Shown here in pieces: positions 9,947 to 12,088 of a stretch of DNA of 12,088 bases. Position numbers and translations under genes: made by a program. Under the pieces are notes generated by a model. That model made no database searches. It had not been told where the DNA came from and saw nothing but the letters and a program-made list of their open reading frames with translations. The first letter of the stretch is position 1; each line of letters begins with the position of its first letter. Source of the DNA: an archaeon (GTDB taxonomy: Archaea > Undinarchaeota > CAZHTU01 > JBDRCC01); assembly GCA_043822065.1 (NCBI GenBank), contig JBDRCC010000010.1, positions 1-12,088 of the forward strand, given 5' to 3'.

Positions 9947-12088
9947 CTCTTCCTCCTCGGCCTTGGGTGCTCTGCGATTTTCTCGTACAGCTCGGTCAGG
10001 TTCTTGCCGTACTTCGCGGAAATCCCGACGACCGGGTGCTGGGGGAAAGCCTCTGAAATCGCCCTGAGGTTGGCTTTCGGCAGGTCGGTCTTGTTCGCGG
10101 CGATGACGATTGGTATCCGCTTCGCCTCAAGCTGGCCTATGAGCATTATGTTCACCTGGGTGAGCGGGTCCTTGGTCGCGTCCATCATGATGATCGTGGT
10201 GTCGACGTTGTCCAGGAATTTTATCGCCTCGATGATGCCTTCCGTCGCCTGTTTCGCCCTGTCCTTCGACTCGATGACGGTGAACTTCCTGCCCTTCTTC
10301 GGCTTCGGCAGGGTTATCCTGAGCCTGCCCATTATCCCTTCGGCTTCCTCCTTTGAGAGCTCGGTTGCGAGAATCCGCTTGAGCTCGTTCTTGGAAGCGG
10401 CTGCGCTGACCTCAATCCCCTGGTCCTTTGCGATTCTCTTCAGCTGGGTGACCTTGAGCCTGCCGAGGAGCTCGTCCTTCGTCCTCGGGCGCTCGTCCTT
10501 CTTGAACCTCAAAAAGTCGCGGTAGTCCACCTTGGTCGCAAGCCCTGGCATGTCGAGCAGGTTCATGATGAGCGTCTTGTTCCCGACCTTGACCTCGACG
10601 TGCTCCTTCTTCTGAATGACCCTGGTCTCGTGCGGGATTTCAGAGACCGTGCCGACCTCCTCGCCGAGCCAGTCGAGCGAGATGCGGTTGGCAAGGGAGG
10701 TGTTGTGGACGACCAGCCCGTCCCAGGTGGAGAATGTGTGGTTGCCCTCCACAGTCAAGTCATATATGTACCCATCGTACTCAATTTCCCTGATTTTTGC
10801 GACTGGGTCCCACATCACGTCCGCTTGTGCTATCCGGTGGATTGCCTCAGTGTTTGGATTGCGGGGTAGCGCCCTGCTCATCCTGACCAGCTTGTCGACG
10901 GCTATCCTGTTTTTCCGCTCCATCCTTGCGATGTGCTGGTGCTCCATGTAGAATTTTGTCCGGCTCATGCCCTCTTTTTTCCTTGCCTCTTCAAGCAGAG
11001 GCATGGCGGGGACTACGTGGATGTTCGCCTTTGAGCCATGGCCGCAAATCTCAGCGAGGGCCTTGTTTTTTTCAGGAAGGGAAAACCCTATGTTCTCCCT
11101 GAAAATCCTGTGGTTTCTGCTCCTCCCTATGAACAAGCGGTAGTAAGTCTTGCCATCGACCTTTTTTTCTGCTATCTTTCCGACAATTCCAAACCTCAAG
11201 AGAAGGAGCTGTATCCCAACCAAAAGCTCCTTGCTCGCACTGGGAAATTCTATGCAGGAATGGGTTCGGTCGCTTGAAACGCTCGCCTCACAGTCGAAGA
11301 GCGTCCGCAGGAATCCTGACACAACTTCGTCATCCTCTTTCAGGATTGGGGCAGGTACCCTTTTGTACCTTGAATTGGCTGGCTCCAGGTCATAAACCTC
11401 TTTCAGGAATTCGACGAGGACCTTGGAGTTCAACATCACCGTTGGCGTCTTGCCTTCCCGCAGGTTGAGCTTTGTCTCAACGCCGAAAGCCTCTTCCGAA
11501 ATGCTTGCAAAGTCATTCAGCATCTGCGAGTCCTGGTTTGTGAAGTAGATGTGGTTTCCGCCGTGGTGCGACTCTGCTATGGTGTACGCCATGAACCTCG
11601 ACAGCTCCGGCGTTATCGTTTCAATCGGCAGGATTGGTTTTGGATGGTGGTACTTCATCTCAAGGGAAACGGACCCGCCGTCTGTTATAAACCGCTTGGG
11701 GAGTGCGTATGAGAATTTCTCCCTTAGGGGGTTAAAGCTGGAGAGAAGGGCGGCATAAGTGCCCGGCACGAGGTCCTTCGCCTTTACCTCCGTGACGCCG
11801 CCATCAGCCATGCAGATGAACGGATGCTCCGGCGACACCTTGACGCGCCTGCCCAATGCTGTCTCGACCTCATAAAGCAGTCCTTTGTACCTCTGCCGGT
11901 AGACGTGCGAAAGCCTCTTGTGCTCTACTTTGAGCGTCTTTTTGTTCAGGGAGGGCACTTTAATGTCCAGATTGGAGCAGCCAATCAGCGCTTCGTTTTC
12001 ATCCGGCCTGACCACCCTGCTCCTAACAACTTCTTCAAAAATTGACTCTATGTTTTTGTAAAGCCCGTCTGAGAGGAGTATTTTTTCT
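9943..12088 (-). CDS. oapA: OapA Era-like GTPase precursor containing an intein; 5' end lies outside the window
   Basis: The frame is open to the window edge ([20 protein letters not shown]...). The C-extein (9943-10701, 252 aa) reads TSLANRI...SEIPHETR (G2), DMPG (G3), [19 protein letters not shown], NKTD (G4) and ISAK (G5). It lies upstream of oapB and oapC. Confidence 0.92.
   Translation of the reverse strand, partial: [714 protein letters not shown]
10702..12088 (-). mobile_element. Intein with a LAGLIDADG homing-endonuclease domain, inserted in the oapA Walker A motif (N-terminus just beyond the window)
   Basis: Block A tail EKILLSDG, block B [18 protein letters not shown]-like blocks FMAYTIAES and [11 protein letters not shown], block H LLLLRFGI, block F [13 protein letters not shown] and block G VVHN, followed by +1 Thr (ACC at 10699-10701). 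Confidence 0.93.

Follow-up and report, generated by a model that had tools for sequence, protein, structure and literature searches.

A predicted LAGLIDADG intein in the Walker A loop of the archaeal GTPase OapA, read from the edge of an undinarchaeal contig

Why should the gene of a small GTPase, which in many archaea lies beside a replication origin, appear at the end of a contig behind several hundred codons that resemble a homing endonuclease? The contig is JBDRCC010000010.1 of assembly GCA_043822065.1, from an archaeon of the Undinarchaeota, and its 12,088 nucleotides make up the whole stretch analysed here, which we call the window. On the minus strand, the frame at 9943..12087 is free of stops across 714 codons and 5'-open at the window edge, the contig itself ending at 12088. 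This frame holds 462 residues of an intein followed by the 251-residue C-extein of the GTPase OapA, intein and extein being translated as one precursor. We read the element as a class-1 intein with a nested two-motif LAGLIDADG homing endonuclease, inserted in oapA at the point where the Walker A loop passes from Lys to Thr, and we would give this reading a probability of about 0.9. Its parts are the following, a slash marking here and below a splice junction, and pLDDT standing for the predicted local distance difference test score of the structural model.

10702..12088, minus strand: intein, 462 of about 467 residues, with matches to PF14890, PF14528, intein_Nterm and intein_Cterm; truncated on its 5' side, where the contig stops
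11698..12087, minus strand: N-terminal splicing (Hint) part, beta-rich, pLDDT 80-96; Thr76, Gly79, Pro86, His88 and Pro89 invariant
11818-11835, minus strand: block B, SPEH, residues 85-88, with the invariant His88
11563..11601, minus strand: first LAGLIDADG motif (AESHH) with the acidic Glu172; Glu172 and His175 invariant in 30 aligned sequences
11284..11316, minus strand: second LAGLIDADG motif (FDCEA) with Asp265, invariant, and Glu267, at least 90% conserved; it lies inside the LAGLIDADG_3 match
11086-11328, minus strand: Pfam LAGLIDADG_3 match, residues 254-334
10702..10827, minus strand: C-terminal splicing part, blocks F and G, ending DGLVVHN; Asp443, His461 and Asn462 invariant; TIGR01443 match at residues 440-463
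10699..10701, minus strand: Thr+1, which opens the C-extein and supplies the Thr of the Walker A GK-T; the C-junctions of relatives read HN/T in 65 of 65 readable cases

The profile matches cover nearly the whole element. The Pfam Intein_splicing model (PF14890) aligns with residues 4-462 over profile positions 2-155 of 155 (E 1.4e-26), LAGLIDADG_3 (PF14528) with residues 254-334 (E 7e-23), and the NCBIfam models intein_Nterm and intein_Cterm with residues 1-91 (profile 6-82 of 83) and 440-463, respectively. At the downstream junction, VVHN/T at 10713-10699, the penultimate His, the terminal Asn and the +1 Thr are all present. The Asn codon occupies 10704-10702 and the Thr codon that opens TSLANRI occupies 10701-10699, position 10702 being exactly the last base of the intein. 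In the 30-sequence alignment His88, Asp443, His461, Asn462 and Thr+1 are invariant, and the acidic positions of both LAGLIDADG motifs are kept (Glu172 in the first, Asp265 with Glu267 in the second). Judged from these residues, splicing competence and endonuclease activity of the window copy are plausible.

The predicted fold points in the same direction. An AlphaFold model built from a 30-sequence alignment reaches a mean pLDDT of 83.5; across the intein, most blocks of 10 residues score between 80 and 97. Its best match in the PDB is the endonuclease-bearing TliVMA intein 7qss (E 5.6e-29), followed by 7qsu, a TliVMA deletion variant (target template-modelling score, TM, 0.82), and by PI-PfuI, PI-PkoII and the PhoVMA intein. 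VMA inteins are also the best sequence matches among solved chains. TliVMA (7qss), PhoVMA (7qst), PI-PfuI (1dq3) and PI-PkoII (2cw7), with target TM of 0.84, 0.80, 0.68 and 0.61, share with the model the combination of a Hint fold and a double LAGLIDADG architecture, but they belong to other hosts and have 16-20% sequence identity to the window intein. The original prediction, made from the letters of the sequence, had proposed a LAGLIDADG intein at 10702..12088 with complete blocks B to G ending in HN then T, and an extein resuming as TSLANRI at the Walker A Thr. The profile matches, the model and the structural matches bear out the first of these proposals; the blocks are complete as described, most of block A being present as well; and the codon coordinates, together with an intein-free relative, fix the point at which the extein resumes.

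On which residue does the upstream side of the insertion fall? The site has to be assigned through relatives, because the N-extein and Cys1 of the window copy lie beyond the contig end. Alignment with intein-bearing relatives indicates that about five intein residues, Cys1 included, are absent at the edge, and that an N-extein of some 30-35 residues (roughly 33) lies further out. Among the 120 intein-free homologues listed, out of 2,188 matches, the closest is a 287-residue GTPase of Candidatus Undinarchaeota archaeon (P0010), 77% identical over the whole C-extein. Its P-loop is uninterrupted, and behind GK it agrees with the opening of the window C-extein residue for residue over 27 positions. 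An uninterrupted G..N.GK[TS][TS] is found in all 120 of these homologues. Seven other proteins, of 392-1250 residues, came out of the search for relatives as combining the same GTPase with an intein: six of them read GK/C, that is, G..N.GK followed by Cys, and the seventh is truncated at its N-terminus. The window residues EKILLSDG align onto block A of these proteins. The site between Lys and Thr of Walker A, already favoured in the original prediction, is thus supported both by the empty P0010 and by occupied relatives that read G..N.GK/C. A GTG at 12015, which would open a 690-residue open reading frame, was considered as a start codon and rejected, since the relatives run on upstream through block A into the N-extein. 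As a separate observation, the contig breaks about five codons into the intein; an assembly could be interrupted there if the population contained both occupied and empty oapA alleles.

How widespread is an intein at this site? One scan of 185,579 species genomes led to 80 loci being fetched, 34 of which carry an OapA-type C-junction; the best locus of the scan is 47% identical. Position 1 is Cys, in the context GK/C, in 33 of the 34 (L027 was read by eye), the remaining one, L024, being cut by a contig end. Halobacteriales account for 24 of the 34, with cultured haloarchaea among them (Halomarina halobia, Natronosalvus hydrolyticus, Natronomonas aquatica, Natronoarchaeum, Halocatena marina and Actinarchaeum halophilum), and the record titles of the remaining 10 give Micrarchaeota, Woesearchaeota, Pacearchaeota, Nanoarchaeota and, in one case, a 'Methanosarcinales' metagenome-assembled genome. 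Furthermore, a protein search seeded with the Halomarina protein returned at least 64 further intein-GTPase clusters among the 120 matches listed. Seventy such clusters were examined, and both junctions could be read in 62 of them: the N-junction has Cys in 67 of 67 readable cases, and the C-junction HN/T in 65 of 65.

The intein occurs at this site in two main sizes. Among the loci, 24 inteins are full-length (462-483 residues) and 9 reduced (186-378), and the distribution in the clusters is bimodal, with 33 at 183-307 residues, 4 at 384-431 and 25 at 465-474. Many haloarchaeal OapA genes therefore carry same-site mini-inteins of 183-307 residues devoid of an endonuclease domain (L026-L031, L035-L037 and the 33 clusters), and the few intermediates of 378-431 residues look like stages of endonuclease decay. 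In the source records these proteins are named '50S ribosome-binding GTPase', 'GTP-binding protein', 'hypothetical protein' or 'LAGLIDADG family homing endonuclease, partial', and the wording 'intein/homing endonuclease/GTPase SAR1 family protein' already stands in some automatic annotations. In one micrarchaeotal locus (L011, 2027-3787, plus strand) an intein-free aIF5B/IF-2 gene stands directly upstream of an intein-bearing oapA, so that of two neighbouring P-loop GTPases one alone is occupied.

Several points weigh against our interpretation of the window copy. Its Cys1 and its entire N-extein are outside the window, and the upstream junction is read from relatives. Block B has Ser (SPEH) where many inteins have Thr, several relatives likewise having Ser. 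The first 26 residues of the C-extein fall below a pLDDT of 50, as is to be expected because the N-extein is absent, and the model is uninformative on the junction. The difference in composition between intein and host, described below, is modest, and a recent homing event is not supported, because no relative of the window intein exceeds 50% identity.

Could the element then be a decayed, splicing-dead remnant, which would make this oapA copy in effect a pseudogene? Such a remnant might hide behind a contig that stops inside the element with the N-terminal nucleophile unseen, and the family does tolerate some drift: a woesearchaeal copy (L025, match 4001-5896) ends ASN/T, with Ser replacing the penultimate His that is kept in all other readable copies. 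We nevertheless hold this explanation to be very unlikely, given that the frame remains open over its 714 codons with all visible catalytic positions conserved, that the downstream oapB and oapC are intact and overlap as in an operon, and that the extein keeps 77% identity to an intein-free orthologue. We regard the intein of the window as genuine and probably functional, and its site as of a textbook type.

How would such an intein operate? Splicing would start with an N-S shift at Cys1, followed by the attack of Thr+1 and by the cyclisation of Asn462, aided by His461. Excision would join the N-extein of about 33 residues to the C-extein, recreating GKT in G-E-P-N-T-G-K/T. A contiguous GxxxxGK[ST] loop is needed for nucleotide binding. 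Because the contiguous loop has this textbook role, GTP binding would require splicing, as the original prediction had supposed, and the spliced protein alone would have a working nucleotide-binding loop. The endonuclease, for its part, would cleave empty oapA alleles at this conserved position, whereupon the intein would be copied in during repair (homing). Homing of this kind would explain the shared insertion site of haloarchaea and several DPANN lineages, and would also account for the mini versions that have no endonuclease.

Where does the window intein stand among P-loop inteins? A search of 1.84 billion representatives with its sequence gave 4,579 matches, the top three of OapA type (48%, 44% and 37% identity). 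The fourth, at 34%, is a TPR-AAA ATPase in which the match to the AAA profile picks up again at position 12 as soon as the intein ends, once more at a Walker A GK/T site. The top 19 hosts, scanned with Pfam, comprise 3 of OapA type, 1 TPR-AAA ATPase, 11 MCM proteins, 2 ATPases of T2SSE/VirB11 type, 1 SMC protein and 1 unassigned. In the 46 non-OapA loci, part of which were read by eye, P-loop junctions are seen in aIF5B-like, HerA-like and ParA-like hosts, and VirB11-like ATPases, with the hosts likewise named by eye, have their intein at a site outside the P-loop. The ParA-like hosts belong to two bacterial metagenome-assembled genomes, of Omnitrophota and Liptonbacteria (L040, match 4001-5785, and L041, match 4001-5764), in which related LAGLIDADG inteins follow the Lys of a deviant Walker A motif that by eye resembles that of ParA/MinD (GGVAK/C and GGVGK/C).

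Insertion into P-loops is a well-described habit of inteins, and the MCM-a (CDC21-a) inteins of haloarchaea and Thermococcales directly follow the Walker A lysine of their P-loop NTPase, according to the portions of the two studies that deal with these sites (PMC4760082; PMC10643990). Their host, however, is a helicase ATPase and not a small GTPase, and their identity to the window intein is about 27-32%. The closest non-OapA intein, that of the TPR-AAA (Cdc48-like) protein of Micrarchaeia (P0133, L032-L034), resembles it over residues 3-462 with 34% identity and with the junctions GCGK/C and VHN/T, but it belongs to another host family and forms an outgroup in the tree described next. Inteins of archaeal aIF5B/IF2 had been invoked in the original prediction as an example of the GK/T site. 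In three loci of Thermococcus and Methanocaldococcus (L043, L047, L074), whose host name was given by eye from the flanking sequence, such inteins interrupt the GK/T of a translational GTPase with the junctions DHGK/C...VHN/TTLLD. They differ from the window intein in having about 22-26% identity to it and in occupying a long branch of their own.

A quick maximum-likelihood tree of 40 rows, which left out inteins of fewer than 430 residues as well as P0003 and P0131, places 33 OapA inteins on one side of a branch and 7 other P-loop inteins on the other, with a Shimodaira-Hasegawa-like approximate likelihood ratio (SH-aLRT) support of 97. A derivation from P-loop inteins of hosts such as IF2 or MCM had been envisaged earlier; in this tree, drawn without MCM inteins, the window intein groups with those of OapA and outside those of aIF5B-like hosts. 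It forms a branch of its own (length 0.57) and shares no more than 50% identity with any other, and the intein subclades broadly track the host groups (Woese- and Pacearchaeota, Micrarchaeota, Halobacteriales).

The same data bear on the question of whether the junction could be an artefact, an assembly chimera that fused the intein of a different gene (mcm, for example) to the C-extein of oapA at a shared P-loop-like sequence. Such a join is conceivable in a contig that ends within the intein, all the more as the flanking motifs are common to P-loop inteins of different hosts. The intein sides, though, with those of OapA and not with those of AAA, aIF5B, HerA-like or ParA-like proteins, its best non-OapA match is merely 34% identical, and blocks F and G and the junction with the extein are the same as in 65 of 65 relatives. 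We consequently give a chimera next to no credit, and retain the intein as a resident of oapA.

How did the intein reach this gene? The original prediction had taken the lower G+C content of some hand-counted 60-nucleotide lines as weakly consistent with lateral acquisition. Those counts (25, 29, 32, 35 and 34 per 60 nucleotides) were reproduced exactly, and over all full lines the mean is 31.1 for the intein (22 lines) versus 34.9 for the C-extein (12 lines; Mann-Whitney p 0.002), corresponding to a G+C fraction of 0.52 for the intein versus 0.58 for the host. At third codon positions (GC3) the values are 0.67 for the intein, 0.85 for the C-extein and 0.69-0.81 for 11 other genes of the window. 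A FastTree phylogeny of the C-extein was then built from 38 occupied and 48 empty rows, the latter taken as one in two from P0010-P0053 and one in three from P0054-P0129. As these empty rows were chosen by similarity to the window, the all-occupied clades of haloarchaea and Woesearchaeota are uninformative on fixation. In this tree the window C-extein is sister to the empty P0010 (support 99).

The history leans towards either a lateral arrival or repeated loss, and there is no donor above 50% identity to separate the two. One might prefer to see the intein as an old vertical resident of the lineage, lost by the sampled relatives, rather than as a lateral arrival. The absence of inteins above 50% identity, the separate branch of length 0.57 that it occupies and the broad agreement between intein subclades and host groups would all suit a long residence. 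On the other hand, the window is the only occupied allele in an extein clade of 23 rows (support 98) with its sister empty, and the GC3 of the intein is the lowest among the measured window genes (0.67 against 0.69-0.85). The extein tree furthermore requires at least 5 gains or losses, a weak point given that the intein-free rows were subsampled by similarity to the window. Taken together, old residence appears to us possible but somewhat doubtful.

One may also wonder why the allele has been retained. One suggestion builds on its place in the nucleotide-binding loop of a GTPase encoded beside the replication origin: the OapA intein would be no mere parasite, and its splicing could be conditional, for instance on redox state or temperature, and act as a post-translational gate on an origin-associated function. 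This strikes us as improbable; if true, it would help to explain the retention of the intein, often as endonuclease-less mini-inteins, across haloarchaea and DPANN.

Is the host a new one? To our knowledge OapA is absent from InBase, and a text search of the literature found no paper on an intein in OapA, in an Era-like GTP-binding protein or in a haloarchaeal GTP-binding protein. Among the papers listed for inteins in DPANN, none is about an OapA host, judged by the title and the portion of the abstract displayed. A census published in 2015 covers intein hosts in archaea; neither an Era-like GTPase nor OapA figures in its Table S6, a part of Table S2 and one supplement (PMC4760082), and the GTPase hosts that appear in those parts are aIF2/InfB and aEF-2 (PMC4760082). 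Its category 'aEF2_COG2229' was considered as a possible hidden OapA and was treated as a different host, Table S6 giving arCOG01559, elongation factor EF-2. Table 1 of a 2014 survey of 118 halobacterial genomes lists 13 genes with 24 alleles, none of which is OapA (PMC4071816). Within the literature so covered, the OapA host appears to be uncatalogued in print, and its sequences are plentiful in public genomes. The proposal of a new intein host or allele thus stands in so far as OapA is missing from the consulted parts of the 2014 and 2015 surveys, but falls short in that the allele is already frequent in public genomes and has in part been annotated automatically.

The finding adds one more host to the P-loop NTPases, a small GTPase of unknown function encoded beside the replication origin in many archaea. 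It fits the known tendency of inteins towards Walker A loops and leaves the understanding of inteins unchanged. As it occurs, both full-length and as a mini-intein, in Halobacteriales as well as in several groups of DPANN, the allele could mark gene flow among these archaea. Moreover, it explains some oapA genes of three times the normal length that are named 'LAGLIDADG family homing endonuclease' or 'hypothetical protein'.

On what does the name of the host rest? Pfam and NCBIfam hold no dedicated OapA model, and general GTPase models alone match; the name OapA therefore rests on synteny and homology. The features concerned are these.

9943..10701, minus strand: OapA C-extein, 251 residues and stop, with GTP_EFTU and MMR_HSR1 matches; 77% identity to the undinarchaeal GTPase
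10621-10632, minus strand: G2 motif, HETR, in the C-extein
10543-10554, minus strand: G3 motif, DMPG, in the C-extein
10273..10503, minus strand: 77-residue helical insert (SAP/HeH-like) between G3 and G4, part of the extein and not of the intein; helices at pLDDT 84-88
10084-10095, minus strand: G4 motif, NKTD, in the C-extein
10012-10020, minus strand: G5 motif, SAK, in the C-extein
9533..9946, minus strand: oapB (PF09846 OapB, E 1.8e-16), its ATG overlapping the oapA stop (ATGA)
9123..9533, minus strand: oapC (PF09845 OapC, E 7e-19), its ATG overlapping the oapB stop by one base (TAATG)

The C-extein is a small GTPase that lacks only the first strand and the P-loop. Of G1, the Thr is seen at +1, and the remainder would correspond to that of P0010. 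In haloarchaea, oapABC has been described as a conserved three-gene cluster transcribed divergently from an origin-associated Orc gene, in the sections on this cluster (PMC7002104). The locus of Halomarina halobia (L004) has Orc1/Cdc6 on the opposite strand, followed by the intein-bearing OapA, OapB and OapC, an order that matches the one described there (PMC7002104), and a woesearchaeal locus (L017) has the intein-bearing GTPase, OapB and OapC. The identification of the host as OapA, made in the original prediction, is thereby supported, with OapB and OapC directly downstream in overlapping frames in the window and with the synteny of Halomarina halobia.

The 77-residue insert gives a weak HeH match (E 0.009) and has no counterpart in the 7 other intein-bearing relatives. 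It is present in relatives of 265-295 residues near the window sequence, 7 of these having a precomputed match to PF02037 (SAP), and absent from the OapA proteins of about 208 residues of other archaea. A DNA-binding motif of SAP/HeH type within an origin-associated GTPase may be of separate interest.

Elsewhere in the window, scans for tRNAs and with Rfam gave no matches. The minus strand encodes an EndoIII/HhH-GPD glycosylase (6041-6658) and a LUD-domain protein (6658-7326), and the plus strand a dCMP/cytidine deaminase (7373-7822). Finally, a tyrosine recombinase gene lies at 3483-4370 on the plus strand (Phage_integrase, E 1.5e-45, with an N-terminal SAM-like domain); its product could be a XerA-type resolvase or an integrase.

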